In this document: positions 27,669 to 56,737 of the stretch, one piece after another
How the letters are laid out: each line of letters starts with the position of its first letter
How positions within the stretch are numbered: the first letter of the stretch is position 1
IMG/VR virus record: IMGVR_UViG_3300011008_000016
Span: 128,001 to 192,000 of that record
DNA length: 64,000 nucleotides
Reading direction: 5' to 3' (one strand)
Origin: a virus
Taxonomy: Duplodnaviria; Caudoviricetes
Notes under the pieces: model-generated
Databases searched by the model: none
What the model was told of the DNA's origin: nothing
The model's input: only the letters and a program-made list of their open reading frames with translations
Position numbers and translations under genes: made by a program

Positions 27669-27688
27669 ATTTGCAGTAACATAAAGAT

Positions 27689-27866
27689 AATTAGTAGGTT
27701 AATGGTAACTTACTGATTCCTTACCCGAGGTAACGGGGACTCTTACTCTTGAGCATGTCCTGTCTGGTTGAATCAGGACATCTTCCTTTTAAAAGATTTC
27801 ATCGATAAAATGACTCAGTTGCACGGATAGAAAGGTGGTTACCGACAGCCACCTTTCTCATTCCGT
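27689..27866 (+). ncRNA. candidate structured small RNA (late-type promoter)
   Basis: AACA-N6-TA at 27678-27689; hairpins 27692-27715, 27717-27739, 27755-27781; terminator-like stem 27829-27858; no ORF. Confidence 0.55.
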
Positions 27867-27889
27867 TTACATACAAAAAATAAATTCTG

Positions 27890-27921
27890 GGGTAGTGAAC
27901 CATTTATTAGGTTCACTACCC
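27890..27921. terminator. bidirectional intrinsic terminator
   Basis: GGGGTAGTGAAC/GTTCACTACCCC flanked by A-rich and T-rich runs. Confidence 0.75.
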
Positions 27922-27957
27922 CTTTTGTTTTGTATTAGAAAAACTGCACAACCCCGC

Positions 27958-28290
27958 TTATTTATAAACAATCTCGCTTCTGCCGAACGATATTAGTTGC
28001 TTTACAGTGACATATACATGTCCAGTTGTCTTTGTTAAATCGAAATCACCCTCAAGTCGAAGAGCAATATTCTGATGGCGACCACGAATCTTAGCCTTCA
28101 AATCAAACTTACGAAAAGCTGTGATATTCGTTGTAAAAGCTACATTGTCAGAATCCACATCGGATAAACGGAACTTCATAGAAACAAGATTCCCATATTC
28201 ATATACAGGAATAAATTCCATTTTCATATCGTCCACGATTGCCAGATTGTACTGTAACTCATTAACAGTAAGCATAGTTGTTGTCTTCAT
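27958..28290 (-). CDS. early hypothetical protein
   Basis: AAAGGAGG RBS; operon under boxed early promoter. Confidence 0.75.
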   Translation of the reverse strand: MKTTTMLTVNELQYNLAIVDDMKMEFIPVYEYGNLVSMKFRLSDVDSDNVAFTTNITAFRKFDLKAKIRGRHQNIALRLEGDFDLTKTTGHVYVTVKQLISFGRSEIVYK

Positions 28291-28314
28291 AGTGTAAATC
28301 CTCCTTTGTGATTA

Positions 28315-28500
28315 TTAGAAAATTTCCATTGATTGGTTTTTACGACCAAAAATGTTACCTTTAGTTACCATTCCATCTTCTGGATTCTGAATACCAATAT
28401 TACGACAAACTTTAAGAAGTCCTTCACAATTATTTTCAGGTTTCTCTGAAGAGTTAAGAAAGTTGCTAATTTCATTAATCATCTCAGTTCTCTGTAACAT
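28315..28500 (-). CDS. small early hypothetical protein (start corrected from 28542)
   Basis: GGAGGT RBS before ATG 28500. Confidence 0.65.
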   Translation of the reverse strand: MLQRTEMINEISNFLNSSEKPENNCEGLLKVCRNIGIQNPEDGMVTKGNIFGRKNQSMEIF

Positions 28501-28514
28501 TATAATACCTCCAT

Positions 28515-28853
28515 TTATGAAAGTGATATTGCAATCTGGCATAATGTCTGATAAACGTCCCAGTGTGCATCATACCAAAGCTCACTTAAAGTTTTAACCT
28601 CAAACTCATTTGCAATTCTTCCAGCTATTTGATTAGCTTTGGCGGAAAAATTCTTCAACATATCCAATTGATATTCTGACATGTTCCATATTAATGCATT
28701 TATTGCATTCACATCTTTGGAGGCAATTATTTCAGAATTCTTCTGGAGATATTCTTCAGCCTCTTTCTTTCCCATTTCAGCAGCCTCATCTTTCATAGTG
28801 TTAAAACTTTTCCCATTGCTAACATTGATTCCCATTTCATTAATTCTTAACAT
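28515..28853 (-). CDS. early hypothetical protein
   Basis: AAAGGGG RBS; first gene after promoter 28935-28970. Confidence 0.7.
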   Translation of the reverse strand: MLRINEMGINVSNGKSFNTMKDEAAEMGKKEAEEYLQKNSEIIASKDVNAINALIWNMSEYQLDMLKNFSAKANQIAGRIANEFEVKTLSELWYDAHWDVYQTLCQIAISLS

Positions 28854-28934
28854 AACTTTTATCCCCTTTCGTGTATAAACTGGAGCATAGTAAATTTGTT
28901 ATAGTAGCTCCATTAGTTTCCTTATATACAGAAT

Positions 28935-28970
28935 TAATATAGTACTAAAAAGCTTGCGAAACGGATTTTT
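28935..28970 (-). promoter_or_regulatory. boxed early promoter AAAATCC-N21-TATATTA
   Basis: Same fixed spacing in 5 copies (28935, 33301, 36587, 47274, 56152). Confidence 0.75.
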
Positions 28971-28979
28971 CACAAAACA

Positions 28980-29186
28980 GAGATAGGTGTACAGAATCTA
29001 TTAATTCCATACACCTATCTCATTTTCCATCCGCCGCTTTCATAGCGGCAATCCCGACCCAGCCGCGACACATATCGCATCGGCATATTCCATATTTTCC
29101 AAGGGGCATTTACACCCATCCATTTTCACCGAAGCCCGCCGCTGGATATACACCGGGTATACATATGAGCAGATATCTTCCGCTCT
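28980..29186 (-). ncRNA. candidate GC-rich structured small RNA (late-type promoter)
   Basis: AACA-N6-TA at 29186-29197; hairpins GAGCGGA/TCTGCTC, GCCGCT/AGCGGC, GCGA/TCGC; terminator AGATAGGTGTA/TACACCTATCT; no RBS-led ORF. Confidence 0.6.
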
Positions 29187-29270
29187 AAAAATATGTTATG
29201 TAAAATTTATTTATTTATTAATAAAAAAGAATTCAGTAGAGGATATCTTGTATTCCCTACTGAATTCTTT

Positions 29271-30896
29271 CTAATGCACTGGTTCCAAATCAAATATATC
29301 ATCAGTAACCATATCTTTGTCCATTAAAGGATTTTTATGAGTCGACCGACCTCTACTTCCACCAAATAACATATTCGCATCAGCACCTTCCATATTAGTA
29401 TCAAGACTAATGATTCCTTGAGGCTTTGATAATAGAATATCATCTACCAAAGAGAACTCATTATCTCTATGGAAAGGTTGGTTGAAATATGTCAACTTCG
29501 TAGATGGTCTATAGCGTTCCTTTAACCGAGTGAATGTTAGATAAAGCAATTGATTGTCTCGTTTTCTTTCCAAGTTCAGTCCAATTGTCATATCAGGATT
29601 TTCCATAACTTCATATGCAGAACCAACATTTTCACCACCGACAAATTTAGCTAAATCTGCTTTACCTTCTCTGGCAGCGGCATTAATTGTTGCGAGTGCA
29701 CTTCTGTTATACTGATGAGCTGATACGACTGGTATCTGATAATCAATTGCTACTTGTCGTAATTCATTTGTAACATTCTTGAGCATCTCTTTCTCGTCTC
29801 GGGCTTTTTGGTGTGGAAGAATACGCTTTATGTAGTCGAAGCTAACCATGATAATTTCTTTACCTGTCATTTCAACTTCGTCAATGATATCTCTGAGGTC
29901 ATCTGTGGTGATACTCATATTCGCTCTATATACAAACAGAATACCAATATCATCATTTGCAATAACCTTCTTATCCTTGAGTTTGTCGACAATGTCACTC
30001 GGTTTACTCTTCTCTACATCCGTATCTTCTACTGCCATATTCCAAGTACGAGCAAAAGACTCATCGATGGTATTTTCCATCGTAATATATAATACATATG
30101 GTTTCGCACCCTCGTGTTTCGGTTTGAATGTCTTTGCATTGTATTTCGCACAGTCGATTACAATCTTTAGTAGCATTGCAGATTTGAAACCGCCTGTAAC
30201 TCCAAGAAAGACATACAATTTACCGGGACGAAATCCAGGTGATAACATTTCGTTTAACATTTGAATACCAGTTATGATGATAGATGATGCATCTCCTAAT
30301 CTATCTACAATTTCAGAGACACGCTCAACAATATTTGGGTCATTAAAATCCAGCATCCCAGTATTCCAAACTGTTGAAATTTCTCGTTTCGCTGTCATAT
30401 AACAACGAATCCAATTTAGTACCTTAGCATTGACTTCTGCGAATGTAATAAAATTTCCCTCTTCTACTTCTTCAATGATCTCTTTCATATCAGGGATTGT
30501 ATTAATCAATGTTCCGTGTGTTAATCTATCTTCTATAAAGTTCGTTATGAAATCAATCTCCTTATAATTAAGAGACTTATAACGATCCAGATTTTTCAAT
30601 ATTTCTTCGACAACCGGATTTTCTCCATCTGGTGTACAATAACTGAGAATGATACCTTCATCTTCGTACTTTTGGTCAAGCTTTGCATCTAAAGCTTTTA
30701 ATATGAAATTAACCCGTTCCATAACTACTGGACGAGTTTCATAATTTTTATAATCGCATGTTTTCAGTAGCTTTTGGATATTCCTCAAGTTCAAATTGTT
30801 AATACTCTTTGTTTTCTTGAAGATATATCCAATGATTTTGTTTAACATTGAAACATCCCATCGGATGTTCAATGGTTCATGATTCATAACATCCAT
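29271..30896 (-). CDS. dnaB: DnaB-like replicative helicase
   Basis: GFRPGKLYVFLGVTGGFKS, YITMEN, FDYI, LRQVA....IPVVSAHQYNR. Confidence 0.9.
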   Translation of the reverse strand: MDVMNHEPLNIRWDVSMLNKIIGYIFKKTKSINNLNLRNIQKLLKTCDYKNYETRPVVMERVNFILKALDAKLDQKYEDEGIILSYCTPDGENPVVEEILKNLDRYKSLNYKEIDFITNFIEDRLTHGTLINTIPDMKEIIEEVEEGNFITFAEVNAKVLNWIRCYMTAKREISTVWNTGMLDFNDPNIVERVSEIVDRLGDASSIIITGIQMLNEMLSPGFRPGKLYVFLGVTGGFKSAMLLKIVIDCAKYNAKTFKPKHEGAKPYVLYITMENTIDESFARTWNMAVEDTDVEKSKPSDIVDKLKDKKVIANDDIGILFVYRANMSITTDDLRDIIDEVEMTGKEIIMVSFDYIKRILPHQKARDEKEMLKNVTNELRQVAIDYQIPVVSAHQYNRSALATINAAAREGKADLAKFVGGENVGSAYEVMENPDMTIGLNLERKRDNQLLYLTFTRLKERYRPSTKLTYFNQPFHRDNEFSLVDDILLSKPQGIISLDTNMEGADANMLFGGSRGRSTHKNPLMDKDMVTDDIFDLEPVH

Positions 30897-30902
30897 GGGT
30901 AG

Positions 30903-32099
30903 TTATTCCTCCCTACTCTTTATTCTATTATCTTTTGGATTTATTACCTCCAGAATGTTTTCTAAAGGAATGTTAGCTCCGTTTTTTCTTTTGATATAAG
31001 ACGCTATACGAGCTTCATTCCTCATAGTTTTGTCATACAAGTAGGGACGTTCTTCTATTTTCTTTTCTGTAACTTCTTCTAAATTGATATCTTCTTCATT
31101 TTCTGTATCCTCTTTATTTACAATGTCCATCATTAAGTGTACTTTCGGAGTATTACCAAATGACGACATAATGAAATCCTTTATTGTAATGAAGTTGGGC
31201 AAAGATGAATCAATGACAACCAATAGCCGAAGTTTATCTGCACCATCAATCTTCTTATTTATTCTTTGACGAATTCGATTATTTAATTCATCCAGTTCCA
31301 CTTCTTTCTTTATAGAAATAGCAACTGTTGGAAGTATTGGTGCATATTCATTCTCTAAATATTCTTCAAATGCCAATTTCGTACTGGTGTCATACCATGT
31401 GAAATACATTCCACAAGGACCATCTTTATCAAATTCCCATCTGCTAACGGGACCAATTGATTTGAATCTTCCATCTGGACCAGCAGCTTTATTGTAATGC
31501 CAGTGTCCGAAATAACAATAATTCCCAATCTCACATAACTGGTCGACGTCGAATACAGTAGCCGAAGAATGTTCTACTGTATTCTTTCCTTTCATATACC
31601 ACATAAGGCTTGTAGGACCATGACCAAATATAAAGTCATAATGACGTGAGAAGTATTCTTTATAATAGATATTGCTATCAACAACGTATTCTTCTGGAAG
31701 ATATAAGATATCCATACCTTTAAATGATTCTGTATCAACGGTATGAATAAAGCGAATACGGTCTTTATCTAAGATTTGATCGCATATGACCTCTAAGGTT
31801 TCTAATTGCTTTGCGTCATGACCACTGGTGCCTTCTATAAATCGAAACTGGGTATCATATTCTCTGGTCATGTCGAAAAGTTCTTTCATTATATTAAAAT
31901 ACAACTTGACCGTATCTGACGATAGATACTCTTTCATATCAAAAGTATCTCCTGCAACAACGAAAAGGTCAAGTTGTTTTGTTTTATCAAGTTTATGCTT
32001 TACTGTACGTAATAACTCCAATCGGAATCTATTCGGGTCTGTTGCCCCTAGATGCCAATCTGCTGATATCATTATAGATACTACTGGAGATTTCTTCAT
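30903..32099 (-). CDS. sbcD: SbcD/Mre11-like metallophosphoesterase nuclease
   Basis: ADWHLG, AGDTFD, GT.GHD, FGHG, GHWH. Confidence 0.85.
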   Translation of the reverse strand: MKKSPVVSIMISADWHLGATDPNRFRLELLRTVKHKLDKTKQLDLFVVAGDTFDMKEYLSSDTVKLYFNIMKELFDMTREYDTQFRFIEGTSGHDAKQLETLEVICDQILDKDRIRFIHTVDTESFKGMDILYLPEEYVVDSNIYYKEYFSRHYDFIFGHGPTSLMWYMKGKNTVEHSSATVFDVDQLCEIGNYCYFGHWHYNKAAGPDGRFKSIGPVSRWEFDKDGPCGMYFTWYDTSTKLAFEEYLENEYAPILPTVAISIKKEVELDELNNRIRQRINKKIDGADKLRLLVVIDSSLPNFITIKDFIMSSFGNTPKVHLMMDIVNKEDTENEEDINLEEVTEKKIEERPYLYDKTMRNEARIASYIKRKNGANIPLENILEVINPKDNRIKSREE

Positions 32100-32769
32100 T
32101 TGTAGTACCTCCTTCCATCTTTGTATCGTTCAATAAATAATATATATCTCGTAACTTATTAAAAATTGCGAGTTCTTTCTGGCATTCCTCTGTTTTACGG
32201 ATATTCATCATTCCTTCTACAGTAACTCTTTGAAGAAGTATGATTCCAACATATTTAACAGGTAGATTATATACTTCTTCTAACAACTGAGCATATCCCA
32301 TAAGCTGCATCCAATGGGAATTATAAACATTCTTAGATGTCTTTAAGTCTAAAATCATGAGACAATCCTCTTTTCGATTATATACAAGCATATCCAATGT
32401 TCCACCATATGTAGAACCTTCCATTGGAAGTTCTAATGATACTATCTCAATCTCGGATTGTTCAAAAAATAATTCAAGTATTCTAAATCGGTACATTACC
32501 ATATCGTAATGATTCTTATCCAGAAAATCATCATGTCCTTTTGTATATAGAAATCCTTTTTTATTGAAGTAGATTTCAAACAATTTATGACAATGGGTTC
32601 CAAATGCAGCCTTTTCTTCTAAGTAAATTCTTGTATTGATTCTTTTGAAACCCATATAATTTGCCCAACCAACTAATTCTGGTTTATCAAGTAACTTTAC
32701 TATCTCAGTGCATGACGGAATTTCTTTTCCATTATGATAGTAATTGCGGTGTTCGTCTTCTCTTTCCAT
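32029..32769 (-). CDS. PD-(D/E)xK exonuclease
   Basis: PSCTEI, GTHCH, E, GGTLD, ILDLKTS, QL.GY. Confidence 0.85.
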   Translation of the reverse strand: MEREDEHRNYYHNGKEIPSCTEIVKLLDKPELVGWANYMGFKRINTRIYLEEKAAFGTHCHKLFEIYFNKKGFLYTKGHDDFLDKNHYDMVMYRFRILELFFEQSEIEIVSLELPMEGSTYGGTLDMLVYNRKEDCLMILDLKTSKNVYNSHWMQLMGYAQLLEEVYNLPVKYVGIILLQRVTVEGMMNIRKTEECQKELAIFNKLRDIYYLLNDTKMEGGTTNEEISSSIYNDISRLASRGNRPE

Positions 32770-32850
32770 TCTAACACCTCCTTTAACAATAAAAAATCGT
32801 TTTAGGGTCTTGTGGATTTTGATATAATAACCTACCCTGATATAAAAATA

Positions 32851-33336
32851 AAACTACATATACAAAAAAAGTAATCGGGGAGTCTTTATCACTCCACCGA
32901 TTACTCCGACGTGAACAGGAATACACGTCTTCCTTCTATGGCTTAATAACCATATGCACCCGGCATATAATTATATAGCATCACGTCGGGATTTCTTCTG
33001 ATACCAGTGTGTTGGGACTCAACAGTAGTAGTTGAGTTATAATGAGGTAACACATCTGGTAATGCTCTCGTGGCCCGTGTGATATACGGGTCGTAAGATT
33101 TCCCATACTGAATCACGTTTGCGATTTGATTCAGTATGGGAAATCTTTTGTCAAGCATATTCACAAATTCTTGCTGATTCTTAGTCATTATCTCAATCCT
33201 CCTTTCTAAATACTCGATATAGCTTCGCATCTCCTTTCTTCAGATTTATTCATTTATATACCTCCTTTCATATGTATTTTATCCACTATATCTAAGTATT
33301 TAATATATTTACAAAATCTCTGTGAACCGGATTTTT
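32851..33336 (-). repeat. early cassette copy A (promoter, triple-SD leader, hairpin peptide gene, terminator)
   Basis: 42-nt leader identical to 47171-47212; terminator identical to 46898-46931; 10-21-10 hairpin at 33101-33141. Confidence 0.85.
32943..33188 (-). CDS. small PIL-x7-QYG family protein, copy A (81 aa from the SD-led ATG)
   Basis: AAAGGAGG RBS; homologous to 46957-47226 and 55970-56137. Confidence 0.65.
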   Translation of the reverse strand: MTKNQQEFVNMLDKRFPILNQIANVIQYGKSYDPYITRATRALPDVLPHYNSTTTVESQHTGIRRNPDVMLYNYMPGAYGY

Positions 33337-33398
33337 AAATTTCTCTAAAATATGGGCCATTTCCACAAAAAAATAATAATTGAAGGAGGTGACATAAT

Positions 33399-34652: not shown

Positions 34653-34687
34653 TCAGAACACTATACTAAGCGTGTGAGGCGAACATT

Positions 34688-40106: not shown

Positions 40107-40125
40107 TGAAAGGTGGTGAAAGGCT

Positions 40126-43166: not shown

Positions 43167-43193
43167 AGTAGTAAGAAAGGGGGATAAACTATC

Positions 43194-44060: not shown

Positions 44061-44071
44061 GTCATCCTCCT

Positions 44072-44695
44072 TTATTGTTGTTCTATGTACGGATATTTGG
44101 AAGCATCCACTTTCCCATCTTTAGAGACAATGTAATTGGATTTGTTCCACTCACCTGCCCAGAAATGATAGAATTCCACGTTCATGTTATACATATCGAC
44201 TTTATTCTTCAGTTCTATTTTATTCGTATCAATATTTCCGATTGCATAAAGAACCATATTATCGCATTTAATCTCAGGATATTTATCAAGGAAAGCATAT
44301 AGATTCTTTACACTTTCCTTTCTATCATCCTTCTGAAAATCCTGCTTCGTAGGAAATAACTTCTTAAATACTCGTTTGATGACTTCATCGTCACAGCCAT
44401 TGACAGCTTCAACCGTATATTGATACAGTTCATCAGAAAGTTCATACTGATCATTACGAATCTCTTCAATACTATCCGATTGAAGTGCCAGCACTGTATC
44501 ATAACTTCTTACCTGTTGTGTAATCGTGTTGTATTCGGTTTCCTGTGTTTTCATATCGAATTTATGAAGCCCATATATCAAAACTCCTACGAAAGCAAGT
44601 AAAATAAATGCTCCAACCAGCGTAGAATCTATATGAATCATCTTACGCTGTTTGTATTTCATGGCTTTATTGAATCTTCTCTGATACCTATTCAT
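44072..44695 (-). CDS. LemA-like membrane protein
   Basis: N-terminal TM, YN after TM, LYAFLDKYPEIK...YN.NV..Y resembles LemA L.A..E.YP.LK...YN..V..YN. Confidence 0.55.
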   Translation of the reverse strand: MNRYQRRFNKAMKYKQRKMIHIDSTLVGAFILLAFVGVLIYGLHKFDMKTQETEYNTITQQVRSYDTVLALQSDSIEEIRNDQYELSDELYQYTVEAVNGCDDEVIKRVFKKLFPTKQDFQKDDRKESVKNLYAFLDKYPEIKCDNMVLYAIGNIDTNKIELKNKVDMYNMNVEFYHFWAGEWNKSNYIVSKDGKVDASKYPYIEQQ

Positions 44696-44728
44696 TAGTG
44701 ACTCCTTTCCTTAGTTGAACAATTTATT

Positions 44729-44927
44729 AAGGGTTGTCCGGCAAGTTGGTTTCCGTGGGTACACCGCAAACAAAGCGTTACAGTTTTTTCATTGAAAAAT
44801 ATCTCCCTATATTCTTGCCAAACGTCTTCGTAGAGAGATGCCTCCGATTAAAGATAGAGATTGCGTATATAGCCGGGCAACCTACAGAAAGTTAGATGCA
44901 TACGGGAAGAAATTTCCGTATGCATCT
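44729..44927 (+). ncRNA. candidate ~155-nt end-paired RNA plus terminator
   Basis: AACA-N6-TA at 44718-44729; 12-bp stem 44731-44742/44872-44883 with G-U pairs valid only on +; terminator 44894-44927. Confidence 0.62.
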
Positions 44928-44937
44928 TTCTAAACTG

Positions 44938-46434
44938 TTAAATATTGCAGTATGCATAAAGACCTGCAATACTATCTTTAAACGGTGCCGTGTCCATATC
45001 GAATCGTCCGTCGTTATGCGACACGAACATGTTACTTCGTGGATTATTGAGTTTGTAATATTCCTCTCCAATCTTTCCCAACTTATGACAGAAGATATTC
45101 ATGATATCACCGTCAAAATCTGCATTGGGCTTACCAAGGATATATGGAGGAATACCCATACAATAGTCCGTTATGTCGTTAGACAATTTCGATACCCTCA
45201 TTGTACTATACGAGCCATAATTAATGGATGGATTACGGTCGATAGACATATAAAGGTTGTTATGATCCATGAGGTGCAACATAAGCTCGTAAATTCGATT
45301 GTTATATACAACCGAAGCTTCCGACAACATATCCCATGCATACGGATAATCTTTCTGATACAAATCATGAATCATGGCAACCAATTCCATCTTATACAGT
45401 TCAATGAAAGTGGTATAACCAAGACCAATCTGGTCTGCTCTGAGTTCTGGGTCAGGTACAATAACATTTCGACCTGTGTAGTTAAGGCGCCCACCCAAAA
45501 TCTGTTCGTTAATAATTCCTTCTTTTCTCTTTATCGTATCAAAGGACATTTCCCATAATTCATTTACATATCTTTGTATACGATAAAGTATATTCTCCTT
45601 ACGTAAATATGCTGTATCTTTTTTCCGACCGGCTCGATAATCAACTCTCCGTTTCCATTCGAAATCATCATTCAGAAGCATATGGTCACTGAATAACTTC
45701 TGAAAGATTTTATCTTCGTCCGAATACCGGATATCACCATTCCGAACCATCCATTTCCTTAGAAGCATATTGTAGCAGGGAATACAATGTACAAATACTT
45801 CATCTCGCCGAATTCTGAAGAATTCGTATCCGTCATGTTTCTTATTCTTCTTATAATAAGTCTCCAGAATTTCGTCAAACCTCTCGAAGAATTCAATCAT
45901 TCCGATTCCATAAAATGGAGAGGTTTTGTTTGTCATATATTGGGCTCTTTCAGCCTCTGGTACAAAATGAACCATCTCATACAAATGAGCTTTTGTAAAG
46001 AACCACTCAAGTTTCAAGAACATGGCCGGTTGTATAATAAAGTTCCTATCAAGAACAAACCAACCAGTTTTTCTGATTCTTGTATCGATGAATCTTACAG
46101 GTGTTCCACATACCGGACAAACTGTTTCAGAGTCCATATATCGACGACCTATTAAATGACCGCATGAACAACTGAATCTATCCTCAAATGCATTATCATC
46201 ACGCCAATCTGTTCCATACAATGGCGAATGAATCGAATATAGTCCGGGGTCCAAATCCAAATCGGTTTTTCCTTTCTCTGTGATTCGAAATCCGATTCCT
46301 GTTATCAGTTCTTCTTTGCAACGACTATCCCAATCCGAGATAATAATTCGAAATCTTGGATTACAAATCGTTGCCCCATCTTTCGTCATTTTGTGGGGAG
46401 CGTCTAATCTTTCCCCAGTTAAATACGTGGGCAT
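44938..46434 (-). CDS. rpoC: RNA polymerase beta' N-terminal part with catalytic motif (probably non-virion RNAP)
   Basis: Zn finger CSCG...CPVCG, KEG.I...ILGGRLNYTGRNVI.P, RNPS, NADFDGD. Confidence 0.95.
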   Translation of the reverse strand: MPTYLTGERLDAPHKMTKDGATICNPRFRIIISDWDSRCKEELITGIGFRITEKGKTDLDLDPGLYSIHSPLYGTDWRDDNAFEDRFSCSCGHLIGRRYMDSETVCPVCGTPVRFIDTRIRKTGWFVLDRNFIIQPAMFLKLEWFFTKAHLYEMVHFVPEAERAQYMTNKTSPFYGIGMIEFFERFDEILETYYKKNKKHDGYEFFRIRRDEVFVHCIPCYNMLLRKWMVRNGDIRYSDEDKIFQKLFSDHMLLNDDFEWKRRVDYRAGRKKDTAYLRKENILYRIQRYVNELWEMSFDTIKRKEGIINEQILGGRLNYTGRNVIVPDPELRADQIGLGYTTFIELYKMELVAMIHDLYQKDYPYAWDMLSEASVVYNNRIYELMLHLMDHNNLYMSIDRNPSINYGSYSTMRVSKLSNDITDYCMGIPPYILGKPNADFDGDIMNIFCHKLGKIGEEYYKLNNPRSNMFVSHNDGRFDMDTAPFKDSIAGLYAYCNI

Positions 46435-46627
46435 AATGATTTCCCTCCTTTAACTTTCATGTAACATAATGCATATGTTATTCTTTTGTCCTCCTTTCCT
46501 TGGTTTTTAATATATAAATAATATTTTATCAAGTCTATTACATATTTTTAGAGGGAAATTAATCCCTTTATATCGTAATTCTTGTTTTAAAATTACACTT
46601 GTATATAAAAGTTGGAGGTTAAAAAAG

Positions 46628-46879
46628 ATGTCTAATGGAGCAATGCTCGAAAGGGCAAGAAAACTTGTGTTTGATTGGTACCGTGAAAGAGGAAACAACG
46701 ATTTATCATTTGACAATGTTTACGTTGTCTGGTTCTGCAAAACACTTCAGAATTGGAAGGCTCTGGTATCAACGGATGAACCGGACCACCGGTACTTTGA
46801 GATTACTCATAACGGCGTGGCAAATGAGACCTACCTCGATTCCTATATAAAAGAGGAGAATCGGGTATTTAAAGTTTGA
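46628..46879 (+). CDS. DUF6275-family protein
   Basis: VYVVWFCKTLQNWKALVST...YFEIT.NG...E.YLD.Y. Confidence 0.85.
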   Translation: MSNGAMLERARKLVFDWYRERGNNDLSFDNVYVVWFCKTLQNWKALVSTDEPDHRYFEITHNGVANETYLDSYIKEENRVFKV

Positions 46880-47310
46880 AACTACATATACAAAAAAGTA
46901 ATCGGGGAGTCTTTATCACTCCACCGATTACTTCCCGAACTATATTATGTTATCGTTCAGCGATACGTCGGATGGAAATGATAGTCCATCGACGAATCAT
47001 TCTGAAAAGGCACATAATATGTTGGAGGTAACGCCCGATTAACCCTGGTGGTAGCAGGGTTAATGGAAGTCCCATACTGGAGGCGATTGATTACGCTCTT
47101 CAGTATGGGATTTTTCGTTCCCATAAAGCATTTAATGTCATTATAATCCTTAGCAGTCATAGTTCCGGTTCTCCTTTCTAAATACTCGATATAGCTTCGC
47201 ATCTCCTTTCTTTTGAATTTATTCATTTATAATACCTCCTCTCAAATTACTTTATCCGCTATATCTAAGTATTTAATATAATTACGAAATCTTTATGAAC
47301 CGGATTTTTT
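46879..47310 (-). repeat. early cassette copy B
   Basis: Terminator 46898-46931, hairpin 47070-47110, leader 47171-47212, promoter 47274-47310. Confidence 0.85.
46957..47226 (-). CDS. small PIL-x7-QYG family protein, copy B (alternative start 47160)
   Basis: NPILKSVINRLQYGTSINPATTRVNRALP; three SD motifs in the leader. Confidence 0.65.
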   Translation of the reverse strand: MNKFKRKEMRSYIEYLERRTGTMTAKDYNDIKCFMGTKNPILKSVINRLQYGTSINPATTRVNRALPPTYYVPFQNDSSMDYHFHPTYR

Positions 47311-47340
47311 TATCTTTTTATTAAACTACAACAAAATATT

Positions 47341-47535
47341 AATCTTGAGGGTTGCTACTCAAGATCCACGAGAAAGGAGGCGTGGTCAAACCTTTTTGTT
47401 TATTTCTACAGAGATTTATTTATCCCTTGAACCCCGTGTATAAATATTTGTAGATTTGGGCATCTTGTTGTTTTGACCATGTGTGGGAAAAGACAGAGAG
47501 TGAGGAATCGTGTCCCTTCACTCTCTGTCTCTTTT
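47341..47535 (+). ncRNA. candidate structured small RNA with AAAGGAGG in a hairpin loop
   Basis: AACA-N6-TA at 47330-47341; hairpins 47342-47365 and 47366-47385; long stem 47382-47390/47472-47480; terminator 47491-47530. Confidence 0.55.
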
Positions 47536-47536
47536 G

Positions 47537-48796
47537 TTACGTATCCCCAAAAATCTTCTCGGGGTCAAGTACGTAAGTACGAACTGTACTATCGTGAGAT
47601 TTCTTCATCTTTGCACGAAGCATCGAATTCGAAACTCTTCCAAACGTAAGTCCTGCATTTTTGATACCAAGTAAATAGTATCTATCTCCAGCGCATCTAT
47701 TGCAGAGCTTTTTCCCAATACAATAATCGGGAACCCGAATTTCAACCGTTTGATTCATGTATTCTGACTGATTGCTGGGTTCTAATCGGATATATTTAGA
47801 ACCTTTCTTAATGAAATGATACAGATAATAATGTATGTTATCCTTTGTTAAGGTAACAGTTGCACATAACCCAGTCTTACAATCTGTATCCTTATCATCC
47901 AAGATGACATCTTGAAACCCAGCAGACAGTTTCTTTGTGACATATCCACATTCTCCAGTACCAATCGCCTTTGGATAAAATCCAGAAACGACAGCGTTTG
48001 CCAAAGATGGGATATTTTCCTTTGGAATACCCTCATACAAAGATTGAGTAACAATCTCAAATTCTCCTTTATGGGCATTCCATATAGGACCTTTGGTACA
48101 TAACCATTGACGATATGCATTATCAAATGATCCTCTGGCACCAGATGAATAGAGCTCATATGCTGGATCATCTTTCAATTCTTCTTCAGCAACCTTTACA
48201 AGCTCATCTTGGATGTGCTTATATACGATTGCATCGTTATTCTCTATTGCTTCTTTATTCTCAGCAAGTAGTTGCTTTTTCTTTGCCATAACTTTCGGAA
48301 GAGGTTTTGCTGTTCTTATGGACAACGATGAACAAATCTGAGTATTTAAGGTAAATGCCAACCAGCAAAGTCGATTCATATATTCGATATACTTCTTTGT
48401 ACATTCACCTGATTCATCTAACATAATTGCCGTAGCAATCATATCATCAATCTTACCCAAACCTTTCTTCGTTATCTCAAAGTTGACATAACCAACTTCT
48501 TTTTGAAAATAAGGCTCAATCAAAAACTTGTTAAAGATGAATAGTCCACAATTTGTGAGAACTTTTTCTTTGTTGAAATATTCTCCAGCAACTAATTCCA
48601 TCTCATCATATGTATTGAATTTCGATGGGATTATTTTTGGTTCCAAAACCCCTGTCTTGGGATTTTTCTTGGCACCATTTGGGTCAACTTTATCCGTAAA
48701 AAGACTGTCGAATAATGTTTGATTGATATCGTCTGGTGTTAGTGCCATGAACATTGCTTTTTCTTCGGCTGTTATCATGCGTTTCTTACGAGCCAT
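47537..48796 (-). CDS. rpoC: RNA polymerase beta' middle part (bridge-helix region; probably virion RNAP)
   Basis: SGARGS, SL.EG, KAIGTGECGYVTKKL (cf. TA.SGYLTRRL), DC.T, R.P.YC...C.RC.G; in late virion operon. Confidence 0.88.
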   Translation of the reverse strand: MARKKRMITAEEKAMFMALTPDDINQTLFDSLFTDKVDPNGAKKNPKTGVLEPKIIPSKFNTYDEMELVAGEYFNKEKVLTNCGLFIFNKFLIEPYFQKEVGYVNFEITKKGLGKIDDMIATAIMLDESGECTKKYIEYMNRLCWLAFTLNTQICSSLSIRTAKPLPKVMAKKKQLLAENKEAIENNDAIVYKHIQDELVKVAEEELKDDPAYELYSSGARGSFDNAYRQWLCTKGPIWNAHKGEFEIVTQSLYEGIPKENIPSLANAVVSGFYPKAIGTGECGYVTKKLSAGFQDVILDDKDTDCKTGLCATVTLTKDNIHYYLYHFIKKGSKYIRLEPSNQSEYMNQTVEIRVPDYCIGKKLCNRCAGDRYYLLGIKNAGLTFGRVSNSMLRAKMKKSHDSTVRTYVLDPEKIFGDT

Positions 48797-48833
48797 AAAA
48801 CCACCACCTTTCTTTGGTTGGCTTCACAACCCA

Positions 48834-49712: not shown

Positions 49713-49766
49713 TTTATTTTTCCTCCTTACGGTTTTATTTGTCAAAGTAACTTATTTATTTGTGCC

Positions 49767-52700: not shown

Positions 52701-52832
52701 GTATTCATCTCCTGAAAATCTTGACTCAGGAGTTTCATACTTCTCTGCGTCTCTTACTGATTTATATACAATATGCGGAACGATTGCTTTAAGATATCTC
52801 TTAAAGCTATTCACCATTTCCATATGAATCAT
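49767..52832 (-). CDS. large probable virion/baseplate protein
   Basis: 1021 aa; Y.E.NNYYRML.G.P motif; late-type promoter 52853-52864. Confidence 0.7.
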   Translation of the reverse strand: MIHMEMVNSFKRYLKAIVPHIVYKSVRDAEKYETPESRFSGDEYIGAVLKTDDWLVVRPETLTVEILNAAGIYDKDLIDQIWTNTYLVPLEKRTKVLELRRKAIIDSYEEKNNYYRMLAGLPDVDAEFIYPDPNELIAFGFTGNSVEDYESDNLENMTPLHRLPQTILNAMDDSGYLKEIYDNYINDTGYNAEYVKYLGRRRIPIEQARMADHFELLYVPRPDNANRFNRDFVMYYEEARHYMLGQVYNFHYSASFPYYESYIGFFILVMAIQRMVDSMFEVMVDRDFYDLETCRMFLEAYGVPFVDMFTFRQQKTLVKNLNILIMNKCTSQVMYDILGLLEYDDYDLTKYLLVKQHKTVQMNAESEPVPIFIYRTVLDEDGNATYELDKTKSYEYYFVGVPMNETDINLVEQTDANAHSYESVTVPDSLWIEDRELVERLQDAEINYTETKYTNVAITIRMQEMMFEHVYLQKMLCDKANETSNIMVDLSLINNSKVSLFELEIMLICILCRYYNMEPDLLTSPSKTLAVLGFNFDEDLEAIKDEIRNNPDLYSPKLLKYIDNIYFRTASNVNEMYRNVKELSRLLIEVMQLTQDERVYHANKKLYNTLLITDVHNEVFNLPDGSTPDTYMDWLKAYDYPIYEYIDALDRDSCVDKINYIATKMSTLFADTEYLQYLNPIDTTVINGIIRILRWFKSYTIEIKEMEVVYLFDSKYYNLMKMMSRIWLHAVLCVRELDIGYHEWIQAMSAAMKVKETRNKLFEILRMSGHMSMSELNNRFKDAFKLIGKLTLRDLMIGAYGDTIVYLEGTGFMGLDEDGSFIETVDMEGNGIIRDNLDKDGNLVMHEGINNMDASAKIYDTMSPYYADTMSVGTKHAKFVENKPLKEVINSTSATTHIQETNNKLDDKNRVRFLDTKGVIRETIFSNYSDVIMFRADTESLTGNRSFLSSIESAHGDMVIKDNSHIMKDKCIILGDGTIVDRRSAIEWYVDALLSHCDMTIKEKMAMTDTRRPLQFIVHDE

Positions 52833-52929
52833 CTCCTTTCCGCGTACATACTTAAATGTATGTTAAAAATCCTTATTTTTAAGCATCTATTAACAGGAGA
52901 CTAATTTGCATATAGATAGGAGGAAGATT

Positions 52930-54096
52930 ATGACAATCAGAAATAGTGAAAATGGAAAAGAACCATTACTACTCAGTATACTGAAAGGGATTGCTATTAA
53001 TTCAGGTGTAGGGCTGTTATCAACAGCGGCTCATGTAGTTGTATCAATGACAACTTCATTGATTATAGTTGGTGAATGGGATGAAAGTTTCAATAAAATT
53101 AACAAGATGGTTCATGACTTAAACCCAACACAGTATTCCAGATACAGATTACCAACTCCCAATAAAAACCATTATGAGTTAGTTGCTAATATCTCATATG
53201 TAGTTAATCTTGGACATAGTAACTGGGTTAAAATAAGCTCAGAACTTAACGAAGAAAAGACTGTGTATCGAGAGAAAAAGTTGAAGATATGGTTTTATGG
53301 GAAGAATAAATACAAGATAAGGGAAGAGTTTGTCCGTAAATCATTACAATATAATGATGGTAAGCATATTAGAGTTCGTCACATGAATGATACAGGGATG
53401 AGCCATGATATTTTACCTCATTCATTTGAAAATATTGTAATGGATAAAACGGTTAAGAATCATATTCAGTTAGGGCTTAAAAATTGGTATGATAGTAAAG
53501 ATTGGTATACAAAGCATCAATTAGTACATAAGATTGGTATATTGTTATATGGTGAACCGGGTACTGGTAAATCTACAATAGCAAGAGCTGTCAGTACAAT
53601 GTTTGGTTGTGCTCCAATCATGACATTAGACCAGCAAGACATTATGAGTTCTATATCGAGAATTATTCAAGTGAGAAAACGATACGATGGTTTAATCATT
53701 GTATTAATTGAAGATTTTGATATGTTCTTTACAACGAGAGAAGAAAACAGTCAAACTACTGATAACGATGAAGACCAGAAGAGAGATATCAATCAAAATA
53801 CAGTATTTCAATTATTAGACGGTATCTACTCGACTGACAACACAATATACATAGCAACTACTAATTATATAGATAGACTCGATGAAGCTATGATAAGATA
53901 CGGACGGTTTGACATACAAGAGGAACTCAAGTTTTTCACAAAAGAGCAAGCATTAGAATGTGTTAAAATGTTTGATTATGATGAAAATGTCTTGGATTCA
54001 TTCAATTTGTCATATCCGGTTCAACCATCTTATTTACAAGGAAAGCTTATGGAATATCGAGCGAAAAATTGTTATAAAGGAGATGATATGGAATGA
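52930..54096 (+). CDS. AAA+ ATPase (BCS1-like) with N-terminal hydrophobic segment
   Basis: GILLYGEPGTGKS, IEDFD, LLDG, ATTN..RLD.A..R.GRFD; AGGAGG RBS. Confidence 0.88.
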   Translation: MTIRNSENGKEPLLLSILKGIAINSGVGLLSTAAHVVVSMTTSLIIVGEWDESFNKINKMVHDLNPTQYSRYRLPTPNKNHYELVANISYVVNLGHSNWVKISSELNEEKTVYREKKLKIWFYGKNKYKIREEFVRKSLQYNDGKHIRVRHMNDTGMSHDILPHSFENIVMDKTVKNHIQLGLKNWYDSKDWYTKHQLVHKIGILLYGEPGTGKSTIARAVSTMFGCAPIMTLDQQDIMSSISRIIQVRKRYDGLIIVLIEDFDMFFTTREENSQTTDNDEDQKRDINQNTVFQLLDGIYSTDNTIYIATTNYIDRLDEAMIRYGRFDIQEELKFFTKEQALECVKMFDYDENVLDSFNLSYPVQPSYLQGKLMEYRAKNCYKGDDME

Positions 54097-54665
54097 TTAT
54101 ATTATATGGATCAACTGGTTCAGGAAAAACGACTACAGCTATAGAGTTGGAACGACTTGGTATGCGGGTCGTTCCAACTTATACAACTCGTCCACCAAGA
54201 GAAGATGATTTTGGAACCATATGTACTACTGAAGAAGAATTTGAAAAAGCTTTAATTAATAACAAAATCTTTACTCATACATCTTATAACGCCACATTTG
54301 GAAAATGCCGATATTGGCTAATGAAATCTGAATTCTCTGGCTATACAACTAATTCAGTATTGGTTGGAAATTATGAATTCTCGAATTCAATTAATGAATG
54401 GGCTGAAATAGCTTTCCGATGTAGTGTATTCAACGTATTCATTAAAGTAGATTATAATATTATCGTTGAACGAGATAATGCTAAATCTAAACGGATTGAA
54501 AGAATGGATAGGTTAAAACGAGATGATTATAAGATGAAGGAGTTAGAAGCAAGCGCTGATTTAATAATTAATAATCAATCCTTACAATTAAGTAAGAACG
54601 TAGTAGCTGACCTTATTATGGAAAGCTATGATATATTTTTAAAGGAAAGAGGTGTTTTTAAATGA
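54093..54665 (+). CDS. gmk: guanylate kinase-like nucleotide kinase
   Basis: GSTGSGKTT, TYTTRPPRE.D. Confidence 0.75.
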   Translation: MIILYGSTGSGKTTTAIELERLGMRVVPTYTTRPPREDDFGTICTTEEEFEKALINNKIFTHTSYNATFGKCRYWLMKSEFSGYTTNSVLVGNYEFSNSINEWAEIAFRCSVFNVFIKVDYNIIVERDNAKSKRIERMDRLKRDDYKMKELEASADLIINNQSLQLSKNVVADLIMESYDIFLKERGVFK

Positions 54666-55351
54666 AGCAAATGCCAGGTATTATTTTCGATAAGGCAGAA
54701 GCTCCTCATCCAAGGATTGATTCAGATAATGCTTCTTATTACTTGGATTACGATAAGACCGAAGAATACTTCGACTTCTTTGATAATGAAATTGCATTTA
54801 TCAAAGGGGTTGAAAAACTTGTTCGGAAACATCGTTTCATACGGATTACTTATCCTAAATATCTCAAAGAAGTTGTTGGACTGCGGGAGTGTCAAGTATT
54901 TCCAAACATCAAAGATGACGGAAATACAAAGGTAAAACTTGAAATGCATCATGGACCAATTCTTACATTATTTGATACATGTGAGATTGTAACAAATGCA
55001 TTTCGAGCCAGAGGTGTTGAGAATATCAATACACCTTCTGTTGCAAATGAGGTCGTAGAACAACATCGACTCAACAATGTACGAGTCATGTTTCTGTGCA
55101 AATCTGCTCATCAAAAAGTTCATGATGAAGGAATCTATATCAACTATAGACAAGGATTCGGAGATACTCTAAAATTTTTACAACTATTCGGTGATGGAGT
55201 CAGCAAGAATATGAAGATGAAGATAAATGAGTATCTTGCTTGGAGTTTGGAGCATGATTCTACAGACAATAACATTCTTCAAATTGCAGATACCATGAGA
55301 GAATGGGGTAACAATGACTTTGATGAATTTGAATCTATTCATTTAGAATAA
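54662..55351 (+). CDS. HNH-like His-rich protein, paralog of 62954-63664
   Basis: EMHHGPILTLFD...H..N.V...L..SAHQ.VH. Confidence 0.6.
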   Translation: MKQMPGIIFDKAEAPHPRIDSDNASYYLDYDKTEEYFDFFDNEIAFIKGVEKLVRKHRFIRITYPKYLKEVVGLRECQVFPNIKDDGNTKVKLEMHHGPILTLFDTCEIVTNAFRARGVENINTPSVANEVVEQHRLNNVRVMFLCKSAHQKVHDEGIYINYRQGFGDTLKFLQLFGDGVSKNMKMKINEYLAWSLEHDSTDNNILQIADTMREWGNNDFDEFESIHLE

Positions 55352-55358
55352 GGAGTTA

Positions 55359-55862
55359 ATGCTTATGGAAAATACGATTTTGATAGCCATTTTAATAGGA
55401 GTTGTGCTTTATCAAATCTATACTGACTTGTATAACCGGAGAAAGATGTTCGAAATCCAGATTGAAATGGCTAAAGCTCAACAAGCAATGACCAAAGAAC
55501 TTACTTGGAAAGAGATTAAAGAAATCATCAATGATATCATATCGTTCAATGTAAGTACATATATTCTTCACAATGGTCTTATGAAGATGAACAATGAGAA
55601 ATTGTCAGTCATGTGGACAATGATTATTGGTGAGTTATGTACAAAGGTGGATACTGCTATATCACCTGAAATAAAGAGACAGGCTTTCAAATCTATATCA
55701 GAAATGTATTTTAGTCGTTTCATAAAGAACTCTGTAGAGATAACAGTAGTTTATCAGTTGGAAAATAATCGGGATAATAATGTGAATAGACGACTGGATA
55801 TGATACAGAGAAATCAGAATACAGTTAATATCCCAGAACCTGAAAAGAATACAAAAAAATAA
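55359..55862 (+). CDS. single-TM hypothetical protein
   Basis: ILIAILIGVVLY TM; AAGGAG RBS. Confidence 0.7.
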   Translation: MLMENTILIAILIGVVLYQIYTDLYNRRKMFEIQIEMAKAQQAMTKELTWKEIKEIINDIISFNVSTYILHNGLMKMNNEKLSVMWTMIIGELCTKVDTAISPEIKRQAFKSISEMYFSRFIKNSVEITVVYQLENNRDNNVNRRLDMIQRNQNTVNIPEPEKNTKK

Positions 55863-55888
55863 CATCTTAATTTGCATTTCACAAAAAT

Positions 55889-56187
55889 GTAATCTTGGGA
55901 GTCTTTATCACTCCCAAGATTACTAAAACCGTGACAGAACGCGGTTTCTTTATTCAATTATATTACAGTTTAACCATAACTCGGTCTATAACTGTAATGT
56001 TCTACTCTCGGATTGGTCTCACCCAAATAGTCGTGAAAACTAAATGGTACAGGACCAATCACACGGGTATCACCCGGAGCATATGGAGTCCCATACTGAA
56101 TACGGTTGGCGAAACTTCTCAGTATGGGATTATCCATAATATCTAAGGATTTAATATATAAACAAAAAGTCTATGAACCGGATTTTT
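55889..56187 (-). repeat. early cassette copy C (no multi-SD leader)
   Basis: Covarying terminator 55889-55923, hairpin 56089-56129, promoter 56152-56187. Confidence 0.8.
55970..56137 (-). CDS. small PIL-x7-QYG family protein, copy C (55 aa, near-leaderless; not in ORF track)
   Basis: MDNPILRSFANRIQYGTPYAPGDTRVIGPVP...YSYRPSYG, translated manually. Confidence 0.5.
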   Translation of the reverse strand: MDNPILRSFANRIQYGTPYAPGDTRVIGPVPFSFHDYLGETNPRVEHYSYRPSYG

Positions 56188-56203
56188 GGAAATATACAAA
56201 AAA

Positions 56204-56244
56204 TACAATGGATAGTGAATCTTAAATGATTTCACTATCCATTG
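56204..56244 (-). terminator. intrinsic terminator ending the large RNA candidate
   Basis: ACAATGGATAGTGAA/TTCACTATCCATTGT stem then a U-rich run on the minus strand. Confidence 0.75.
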
Positions 56245-56249
56245 TTCCG

Positions 56250-56652
56250 TTTCCAGTGATTTCGGGAGTCTGACCCGCTTGCAAGTATTCTTGCTTTACC
56301 GGTTGGCGGTATACAATTTCTTTCCATGCTAACCAACCGTTTCTACGTTACGACAAATATCTGCAAGGAACATCCTCACCGATACTGGTCCCGGAACATC
56401 CGCAACCATTAGAGATTAACTTTAATCAATATGCCGATCTTGTCATTTCTTCTTTGGGAGCCCGTTCACCCACTGGCTTTTTCGTCTTGATTCATGACCA
56501 TCCTCAAAGACCTTCCTACTTTTTCTGAATCGGGTGTCTAATTTACCTCAGCTTATTGGTTACAATGTTTACAATCCGCATACGTTCGAATTGCCATCCA
56601 CCCATCTCTTTGGGTGCCCGCAGGAACTCCAACAGTATTCCGTGCACTGAAT
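56250..56652 (-). ncRNA. candidate ~400-nt large structured RNA
   Basis: ORF-free and GC-enriched; ends pair (TTCAGTG/CACTGGA); internal stems CACCCA/TGGGTG, TCTTTG/CAAAGA, CGGTTGG/CCAACCG, GCAAG/CTTGC, CGGG/CCCG; variant late promoter CACA-N6-TT at 56650-56661. Confidence 0.62.
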
Positions 56653-56737
56653 AAAGTTGTGTCGATCTTCAATAAGCATATAGACGGAGAGACCTCTCAT
56701 TTACCAGTCCGTCATTTTTGTCCATGGGTCGTCTTGA

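Follow-up and report, generated by a model that had tools for sequence, protein, structure and literature searches.

The five intervals without open reading frames examined here, numbered R1 to R5 by position, are probably two different things: four short non-coding late transcription units (R1 to R4), and one conserved RNA of ~480 nt (R5). They lie in a 64 kb stretch of DNA (the window) from the 244 kb genome of an uncultured AR9-type jumbo (giant) phage that carries genes for a multisubunit RNA polymerase (RNAP) of its own; split RNAP β and β′ genes mark the phage type, and the genome is consistent with the standard genetic code. A sequence-only reading had taken all five for a single late non-coding RNA programme, each member running from a late promoter to a terminator. 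Three to four plausible late units with recurrent promoters remain of that proposal, whereas R5 has to be removed from it. Of the two results, R5 is the more solid. The features are listed in Table 1.

Table 1. Features of the five intervals and their surroundings (positions in the window)
Feature	Position	Strand	Description
R1 late promoter AACATAAAGATAA	27678..27690	+	AACA-N6-TAA; predicted start 27689
R1 predicted transcript	27689..27866	+	13-bp 5′-terminal hairpin (27689-27718), body, terminator (27825-27864)
R2 late promoter variant AACATATTTTTAG	29185..29197	-	AACA-N6-TAG
R2 predicted transcript	28980..29186	-	5′ hairpin (29167-29185), body, terminator (28980-29021)
R3 late promoter AACAATTTATTAA	44718..44730	+	AACA-N6-TAA
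R3 predicted transcript	44729..44927	+	long closing stem of ~11-12 bp (44731-44742 with 44872-44882), bidirectional terminator (44894-44927)
R4 late promoter AACAAAATATTAA	47330..47342	+	AACA-N6-TAA
R4 predicted transcript	47341..47535	+	5′ hairpin (47342-47365), body, bidirectional terminator (47491-47530)
R5 conserved structured RNA core	56258..56716 (about)	-	~480 nt
R5 P1 hairpin	56684-56712	-
R5 P2 closing stem	56670-56677 with 56551-56558	-
R5 invariant loop GAGGAUGGUCAUGAAU	56490-56505	-
R5 P8	56300-56339	-
R5 T-loop-like hairpin	56263-56277	-
Intrinsic terminator closing the R5-bearing transcript	56210..56240	-
Early-promoter cassette downstream of the R5 terminator	56140-56195	-
289-aa gene directly upstream of R5	56738..57607	-	predicted family-B-polymerase-like fold (palm and fingers)

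The late motif is a real, specific and strongly selected AR9-type signal. Across four related genomes, AACA-N6-TAA is enriched 2-3-fold between genes and depleted 5-7-fold within them, so that spurious copies in coding DNA appear to be selected against. The genome studied here (G000) carries 26 intergenic and 10 coding copies, compared with 3-12 and 41-83 for composition-matched control motifs, and the pattern is repeated in the relatives G001, G002, and G004. Eighteen of the 26 intergenic sites have a start codon with a Shine-Dalgarno sequence at most 75 nt downstream. The late consensus mapped in AR9 is AACA-(6N)-TA/G, with AACA at −11 to −8, T at −1, and A or G at +1 for the non-virion RNAP (PMC5312081). 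R1, R3, and R4 agree with it in the strict form and R2 in a TAG variant, and 18 nt of the R2 promoter recur unchanged in a gene-proximal promoter at another place in the genome. The proposed R5 promoter (CACA-N6-TT) does not match and is not conserved.

Each of the four late units sits differently among its neighbors. The R1 promoter is found 10 nt downstream of the stop codon of a Dda-like helicase gene, which places the predicted R1 start 21 nt past that stop, and the terminator is common to R1 and the helicase gene. An early-promoter cassette (28914-28971) comes directly after the end of R2. The R3 promoter is antisense to the spacer between an RNAP β′-like gene (44938-46434, minus strand) and the gene at 44072-44695 (minus strand), and the downstream ribosome-binding site is outside R3. 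The R4 promoter and an early-promoter cassette on the minus strand (47261-47313) are divergent, and the terminator is common to R4 and an RNAP gene (47537-48796, minus strand). All four predicted RNAs have a stem at their start, which is a 5′-terminal hairpin in R1, R2, and R4. As originally described, a terminator closes every interval; the four in the transcripts of R1 to R4 and that at 56210-56240 for R5 each consist of a strong hairpin and a T-rich tail. Those of R1, R3, and R4 double as terminators of the neighboring genes.

The description of the intervals as hairpin-dense stands for R1 to R4 when the terminators are included (folding z of −3.7 to −5.4 compared with shuffled sequences), but the bodies are mostly weak when they are left out (z = −1.3, −1.9, −1.9, and −3.7 for R1 to R4, and −0.8 for R5). 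Fold stability outside the end hairpins of R1 to R4 is thus modest. Likewise, the strand predicted from the promoters is the more stably folding one for all four, but only R3 and R4 favor it when compared with shuffled sequences. The five intervals share no detectable sequence similarity with each other, as the sequence-only reading had noted. It was also right not to recognize them as tRNA, tmRNA, RNase P, or SRP genes: ARAGORN found no tRNA or tmRNA gene, and a search of the 64 kb against Rfam gave no gathering-score match, with only chance hairpin matches to the intervals at E ≤ 1. ROOL, GOLLD, and group I and II introns are rejected on the same Rfam search. We also considered R3 as a 6S RNA and rejected it, as 44690-47560 gives no Rfam match at E ≤ 1 and the syntenic RNAs of G001 and G002 share no sequence.

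On neither strand do the intervals contain an open reading frame with a Shine-Dalgarno sequence ahead of it. Nevertheless, they might encode small or leaderless peptides that lists of open reading frames miss. A “TAATGG” start recurs at the orphan late-promoter sites, several orphan transcripts of the phage group would begin with AAUG, a 53-codon TTG frame crosses R3, and R4 has a 23-codon GTG frame after AGGAGG. Yet the AUG-initiated frames have only 2-15 codons and are not conserved between syntenic units, the R4 GTG is just 1 nt past its Shine-Dalgarno sequence, and no frame has the strong ribosome-binding site usual in this genome. We consider peptide coding very improbable.

A more serious concern is that R1 to R4 are not separate RNAs, and that the promoters are chance 13-mers in A+T-rich spacers whose hairpins are the terminators and leaders of the neighbors. 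The motif holds only ~10-11 bits of information, and AACAN6TW as such shows no enrichment in the window, with 97 copies against an expectation of 127. The seven orphan sites in G000 are close in number to the intergenic copies of the control motifs (3-12), so the count by itself is compatible with chance, and the argument has to be made from the avoidance of coding DNA and from syntenic recurrence. The weak R1 to R3 bodies would also suit a chance origin, as would terminators in R1, R3, and R4 that the neighboring genes need regardless. Against it stands, besides the depletion of the strict motif in genes, its recurrence at identical junctions, with unchanged orientation, in spacers that otherwise cannot be aligned. 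The strict motif occurs behind the helicase gene (the R1 site) in G000, G002, and G004, with only an AACC variant in G001; in the R3 spacer (rpoB/g44072) in G000, G001, and G002; and, similarly arranged, in G000 and G002 at the site of R4, being absent there from more distant relatives (L066). Five of the seven G000 orphan sites are also present in G002 (hypergeometric P between 4e-6 and 4e-3). Furthermore, 5′-terminal hairpins specifically follow the orphan promoters (12 of 31 orphan transcripts, versus 4 of 67 mRNA leaders; Fisher P = 1e-4). On balance we regard a chance origin of these motifs as rather unlikely, and R1 to R4 as probable non-coding late transcription units.

What recurs in the late units is their layout. 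Neither blastn nor nhmmer found homologues of R1 to R4, the flanking non-coding sequence having diverged past detection, even where the flanking proteins are 80-85% identical. This lack of sequence conservation leaves R1 to R4 without comparative evidence for a specific fold, and makes a specific conserved fold or binding surface unlikely.

In contrast, R5 is a conserved folded RNA of a family that is absent from Rfam. It directly follows the stop codon of the 289-aa gene in all 11 distinct relatives aligned, and is present in a single copy. Across the 11 sequences, 55 of 93 base pairs have changed on both sides and 89.7% of the cells are paired; none of 500 shuffles reaches the observed covariation, and slid controls give 15-21. 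The strand is fixed by the many G-U pairs. No Rfam 15 family matches R5, and 56100-56800 yields nothing relevant at E ≤ 10.

The sequence-only reading had R5 begin at a “TT-variant promoter” (CACAACTTTATT, 56661-56650, minus strand), which we reject: it does not match the motif, is not conserved, and falls within the variable P3 domain, and the RNA begins ~55 nt upstream of it. Nor do the 11 relatives have any conserved late or early promoter motif within 230 nt upstream of R5, isolated hits to relaxed patterns in two of them aside. R5 is therefore most likely made as the 3′ end of its operon and is probably the 3′ part of the replication-gene transcript, a co-transcription that we infer solely from the absence of recognizable promoters.

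Together with the 289-aa gene, R5 is located at the end of an operon for replication and nucleotide metabolism. The AlphaFold model of the 289-aa protein (pLDDT 88.7) resembles family B polymerases (Foldseek E = 2e-7; TM 0.5-0.58 by query), and has invariant D30 and D112 at motif-A-like and motif-C-like places. Classical family B DNA polymerases have an exonuclease domain, and acidic residues in motifs A and C. In the 289-aa protein we saw no DxD, no Pfam hit, and no exonuclease domain. A divergent PolB without an exonuclease has been reported for group-1 jumbo phages (PMC7824862).

The position of R5 at the end of a replication operon, together with a minimum free energy z of only −0.8, could also indicate that it acts as DNA, for example as a replication origin, or that it is a decayed gene or intron. 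Neither is easily reconciled with the alignment, since compensatory changes in 55 of the 93 pairs and many strand-specific G-U pairs point to RNA, while the lack of a conserved reading frame and indels that are not multiples of three speak against a decayed gene. As regards an intron, no Rfam intron matched, and a terminator and early promoter follow in place of a second exon. We therefore think these explanations highly unlikely, and R5, as a conserved RNA, could be either a cis-acting 3′ element or the RNA partner of a protein.

On another view, all five intervals would be stand-alone, specifically folded late RNAs of one programme that function in trans as virion-packaged RNAs, host-protein sponges, or small regulatory RNAs. 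Late motifs, protected ends, and the absence of open reading frames would fit such a programme, as would the relatively high G+C content (the R5, R3, and R1 gaps rank 5, 8, and 11 among 70 intergenic gaps, and the R2 body is 51% G+C) and the stable R4 body. However, R5 has no late promoter, and R1 to R4 have no alignable homologues. Moreover, an antisense-target scan of all 245 translation-initiation regions of the phage found duplexes with R1 to R4 no better than those of shuffled RNAs. We consider a common programme improbable, and find no support for R1 to R4 as sponges, virion-packaged RNAs, or regulators.

The claim that such RNAs are undescribed was too strong, given that similar ones have been reported in phiKZ (PMC10914365) and AR9 (PMC5312081). 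In phiKZ there are 17 “5′UTR-derived ncRNA candidates” with a phage promoter and an early terminator (Putzeys et al., 2024; PMC10914365). These short RNAs are discrete, 70-200 nt long, and of unknown function, and phiKZ RNAs of 71 and 141 nt, bounded by promoter and terminator, were confirmed by northern blot (PMC10914365). Both phages are jumbo phages with multisubunit RNAPs, and R1 to R4 are likewise bounded by promoter and terminator, with no open reading frame behind a ribosome-binding site; R2 has the phiKZ layout of promoter, RNA, terminator, and genes. The phages differ in promoter type (AR9-type AACA-N6-TA here, TATG in phiKZ), and, unlike the phiKZ candidates, R1, R3, and R4 are outside 5′ UTRs. 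Furthermore, R1 to R4 are predictions, while ONT-cappable-seq and northern blot detected the phiKZ RNAs. AR9 has seven late promoters that give rise to antisense RNAs late in infection, and its early operons also contain late promoters (Lavysh et al., 2017; PMC5312081). Promoter consensus and polymerase type are the same here, and R3 and R4 run against neighboring genes, but they terminate before the neighboring coding sequence and are antisense to spacers only; we found no homology to AR9 sequences. R1 is reminiscent of the bacterial 3′-UTR-derived small RNAs that have their own promoter and use the terminator of the mRNA (PMC9438474), since it would start just past the helicase stop and use the helicase terminator, but we found no seed region or target, and its sequence is not conserved.

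On the reading that we favor, the non-virion RNAP would start R1 to R4 at the AR9-type late promoter (AACA-N6-T, starting at A). The RNA would open with a stem (a 5′-terminal stem-loop in R1, R2, and R4, and a closing stem from nt 3 in R3), continue into a body of 130-165 nt that is poorly conserved, and stop at the intrinsic terminator. Selection would keep where the promoter lies and how it is oriented, as well as the protected ends, and not a specific sequence or fold. In geometry, R1 would resemble a 3′-UTR RNA transcribed from a promoter of its own past the helicase gene, and R2 a terminator-ended leader RNA ahead of an early-promoter gene block; R3 would lie antisense to a spacer flanked by two co-directional genes, and R4 would be divergent from an early promoter and convergent on an RNAP gene. 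We suggest a local role late in infection: R3 and R4 could pair or collide with read-through early transcripts, and R1 and R2 could yield a terminated leader or 3′-end RNA. Such a role would be in line with the late antisense transcription of AR9 and with phiKZ's short terminated RNAs. R5, produced most likely as the operon 3′ end, might then be processed.

A bolder proposal gives R5 a part in a replication ribonucleoprotein of this uracil-DNA-type jumbo phage clade, as the subunit, template, primer, or scaffold RNA of the minimal polymerase-like protein encoded upstream; in parallel, the phage polymerase would make R1 to R4 and their syntenic counterparts as a conserved programme of decoy or antisense RNAs with protected ends. 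As a whole, we hold it to be quite improbable.

To our knowledge, there has been little exploration, at the level of RNA, of jumbo phages that carry their own RNA polymerases. Should the orphan late units be transcribed, then short non-coding RNAs with protected ends, so far seen only in phiKZ, would be a conserved positional feature of AR9-type genomes, and the units would offer defined sites at which to test what late transcription does when it is antisense or terminated. Large structured RNAs whose function is unknown are uncommon, and time and again they have been a source of new biochemistry. Among them, ROOL and GOLLD are large ornate RNAs found in phages and prophages, each with an Rfam family. 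Like them, R5 is phage-encoded, multi-helix, and covarying, with a variable periphery around a conserved core; unlike them, it is smaller, and confined to one gene neighborhood in one clade of gut AR9-like phages. In every relative examined, R5 is tied to the gene for a divergent polymerase-like protein, which is the obvious candidate for its protein partner.

The source record comprises 244 kb at 37% G+C, of which the window represents bases 128001-192000. The standard genetic code (table 11) fits this genome, as ORFs of at least 100 aa span 86% of it, and an alternative code was ruled out by that coverage. Genes in the window encode split RNA polymerase (RNAP) β- and β′-like subunits, a Dda-like helicase and a DnaB-like helicase, and based on these we assign the virus to the AR9/PBS1-type jumbo phages. 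For comparison, we used three related IMG/VR genomes (G001, G002, and G004) and a G003 fragment; flanking proteins of the three genomes are 64-86% identical to those of the window (72-86% in G001 and G002). Nine more ENA/Logan contigs (L066-L074) were also taken in. A metagenome scan with the RNAP protein returned a single distant relative. The gene content of the spacer region between the two RNAP genes is variable, since the sole detected G002 homologue of the DUF6275 gene located there (46628-46879, plus strand; Pfam E = 9e-29) sits elsewhere in G002. In G004 (L062:16826-20672), the homologue of the RNAP gene 44938-46434 lies on the opposite strand and matches as three separate pieces (residues 2-403, 404-443, and 402-497), which suggests a partial duplication or insertions, for example of introns or inteins.

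The late promoters of AR9 have been mapped experimentally as AACA-(6N)-TA/G, the last base being the start (PMC5312081). In the window, the loose pattern AACAN6TW shows no enrichment (97 observed vs. 127 expected), and an additional A at +2 was needed for the motif to stand out. This strict motif, AACA-N6-TAA, occurs at 26 intergenic sites and 10 sites within genes of G000, the genome holding the window, compared with 3-12 and 41-83 for composition-matched control motifs. The same intergenic enrichment, and the same 5-7-fold avoidance of coding DNA, is seen in G001, G002, and G004. Eighteen of the 26 intergenic sites are located 20-75 nt ahead of a strong Shine-Dalgarno sequence and start codon. 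Judged by its enrichment, coding avoidance and placement before starts, the late motif is a real signal under selection. Predicted late transcripts, above all those from "orphan" strict motifs (not placed close before a gene start), often begin with AAUGGG (TAATGGG) in all four genomes, which suggests a preferred initial transcribed sequence of the polymerase rather than leaderless genes. The promoters at 46539-46570 (+) and G000:C1:112992 (-), both ahead of genes, have in common (T/A)ACATATTTTTAGAGGGAAAT and, after it, a GGGAAAT....TCCC hairpin; their core is that of the R2 promoter, and their leader is unlike that of R2.

Features of the window discussed in the text, with their strands
Feature	Position	Strand	Remark
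R1	27689-27866	+	predicted non-coding late transcript
R2	28980-29186	-	predicted non-coding late transcript
R3	44729-44927	+	predicted non-coding late transcript
R4	47341-47535	+	predicted non-coding late transcript
R5	~56258-56716	-	conserved structured RNA, ~480 nt
Terminator after R5	56210-56240	-	followed by an early cassette
289-aa gene	56738-57607	-	AlphaFold model, family B DNA polymerase-like
Repeated ~50-nt element	28914-28971, 47261-47313, 56140-56195	-	contains TATATTAA

The sequence-only reading had placed R1-R5 together as five stand-alone RNAs, each running from a late promoter to a terminator. R5 was put in the wrong class: its supposed "TT variant" promoter at 56650-56661 does not match the late motif and is not kept in relatives. 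Conservation instead begins ~20 nt past the stop codon of the 289-aa gene. Apart from isolated relaxed-pattern matches in two of them, 11 relatives have no late or early motif within 230 nt 5′ of R5, so that R5 most likely forms the 3′ end of the operon transcript. A gene-free stretch of 450-700 nt with the same RNA lies behind the gene in every examined contig whose homologue is at least 62% identical, at one copy per genome, and full-length R5 is found in eight of the nine ENA/Logan contigs. L069, a 42%-identity relative, has the central part only. An R5-type RNA is absent from the distant relative found with the RNAP protein, from L065 (21% identity) and from the cultured Listeria phage LPJP1.

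The covariation alignment of R5 comprises 11 distinct sequences, and its consensus fold has 18 helices and 93 pairs (89.7% paired cells). Changes on both sides occur in 55 of the 93 pairs, a number reached by none of 500 column shuffles and compared with 15-21 in slid-partner controls; the strand follows from the many G-U pairs. Within the core are an invariant loop, GAGGAUGGUCAUGAAU, whose hairpin stem covaries in nearly every sequence, and a T-loop-like hairpin, CGGG-UAAACU-CCCG, while the peripheral domains are variable or, in L072, deleted. Rfam, searched at the gathering score and at relaxed E-values, contains no family that matches R5, and neither Rfam nor ARAGORN gave anything relevant for R1-R5. 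Scanning IMG/VR DNA for the pattern of the R5 3′ hairpin returned five unrelated coding matches, and R5 motifs were not found in the first 200 of the 408 supplement files of PMC8040213. We are confident that R5 represents a new structured RNA family. Given that this covarying RNA has an MFE z-score of only -0.8, weak z-scores say little here.

The 289-aa protein encoded directly upstream of R5 has no match in Pfam. In Foldseek (E = 2e-7; TM-score 0.5-0.58 by query), its AlphaFold model (pLDDT 88.7) matches family B DNA polymerases of archaea and eukaryotes in their palm and fingers, making the protein, by predicted fold, a candidate polymerase. This would be consistent with the divergent PolB without exonuclease described in group-1 jumbo phages (PMC7824862). 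There are ~50 homologues in public assemblies. The gene is conserved among AR9-like jumbo phages of Bacillus, Staphylococcus, Listeria, and Yersinia, where its annotation is hypothetical throughout. Two adjoining genes 5′ of the 289-aa gene (57615-58493 and 58513-60216) belong to no known family, and their equivalents in relatives adjoin or overlap its homologue.

The promoter-to-terminator layout stands for the other four units. The strict motif precedes R1, R3, and R4; R2 has AACA-N6-TAG, within an 18-nt identity to a gene-proximal promoter at another site of the genome. In all four, a stem lies no more than 3 nt from the predicted start and a strong terminator closes the unit, the terminators of R1, R3, and R4 doubling as those of the helicase gene and two RNAP genes. 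The claim that they are hairpin-dense holds for these ends, but with terminators removed the bodies fold only modestly more stably than shuffled sequences (z = -1.3, -1.9, -1.9, and -3.7 for R1-R4, in that order). On neither strand does any of R1-R4 contain an ORF with a Shine-Dalgarno sequence ahead of it. Coding by small ORFs or from leaderless AUGs was also considered and rejected, as such frames are short and lack conservation. In a (crude) duplex scan against 245 phage translation-initiation regions, R1-R4 did no better than shuffled RNAs, leaving an anti-Shine-Dalgarno reading of R1 unsupported.

R2, R4, and R5 each adjoin one copy of the ~50-nt element, which reads AAAAATCCGGTTCAT...TATATTAAAT..TAGATAT. 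Copies lie directly 5′ of minus-strand genes, and there are several in G001 and G002 as well. The element resembles AR9 early promoters and is probably an early (virion RNAP) promoter cassette.

R1-R4 have no detectable similarity in relatives: when four related genomes and eleven loci were searched by blastn (word size 7) and nhmmer --max, self-matches and terminator palindromes were all that came up. GenBank phages likewise gave no match to the 21-kb stretch spanning R1-R4 (near mode) or to R2 alone (distant mode). One R2-like unit, G001:C1:64365-64635 (+) (L042), lies ahead of a 1576-aa gene and consists of R2's promoter AACATATTTTTAGAG, a ~205-nt G+C-rich RNA and a terminator. It has GGCGGCGGGC and AAAAUGAGAUA in common with R2, at similar G+C; nhmmer found no link between the two, and their kinship may be regarded as a lead only.

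What recurs is the orphan promoter. A strict orphan motif lies right after the helicase gene, in the same orientation, in G000, G002, and G004 (an AACC variant in G001); antisense in the spacer after RNAP gene 44938-46434 in G000, G001, and G002; and, at the R4 site of G000 and G002, beside the early cassette, where the more distant relatives L066 and L067 have no motif and a TAG variant, respectively. Strict orphan motifs recur at the same junctions and orientation at three more sites outside the window. Five of seven G000 orphan sites are common to G002 (hypergeometric P from 4e-6, all junctions, to 4e-3, ~50 long gaps only). Across the four genomes, a stable 5′ hairpin is present in 12/31 orphan transcripts vs. 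4/67 mRNA leaders (Fisher P 1e-4), and their first 36 nt have a median energy of -5.8 vs. -2.2 kcal/mol (P 1e-5). Since the absolute orphan count is close to the intergenic count of control motifs, the case rests on coding avoidance, syntenic recurrence and 5′ hairpins, not on counts. Orphans outside the window at G000:C1:73060 (-), 72887 (-), 85223 (-), and 49768 (-) include two in tandem in a hairpin-rich island beside gene 73169-75091, one antisense between two plus-strand genes, and one whose structured leader is 223 nt long; for each of them, relatives have a counterpart at the corresponding junction.

The earlier observation is partly confirmed, and its single late programme partly supported: R1-R4 are probable late units, but R5 is a separate structured family without a recognisable promoter of its own. 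Nor would R1-R4 be undescribed in kind. On balance we favor the view that they are short late non-coding units, presumed to be transcribed, a kind for which phiKZ and AR9 offer known examples. Their layouts parallel the late antisense RNAs of AR9 (PMC5312081) and the short promoter-plus-terminator RNAs of phiKZ; the latter were confirmed by northern blot, whereas R1-R4 are predicted. As position, orientation and protected ends are kept but sequence is not, we prefer a local role to a specific trans-acting fold. R1 would resemble a 3′-UTR RNA; R2 would be a leader RNA halted by a terminator ahead of an early gene block; R3 would run antisense to the spacer between two genes that are probably co-transcribed; and R4 would converge on an RNAP gene and diverge from an early promoter.
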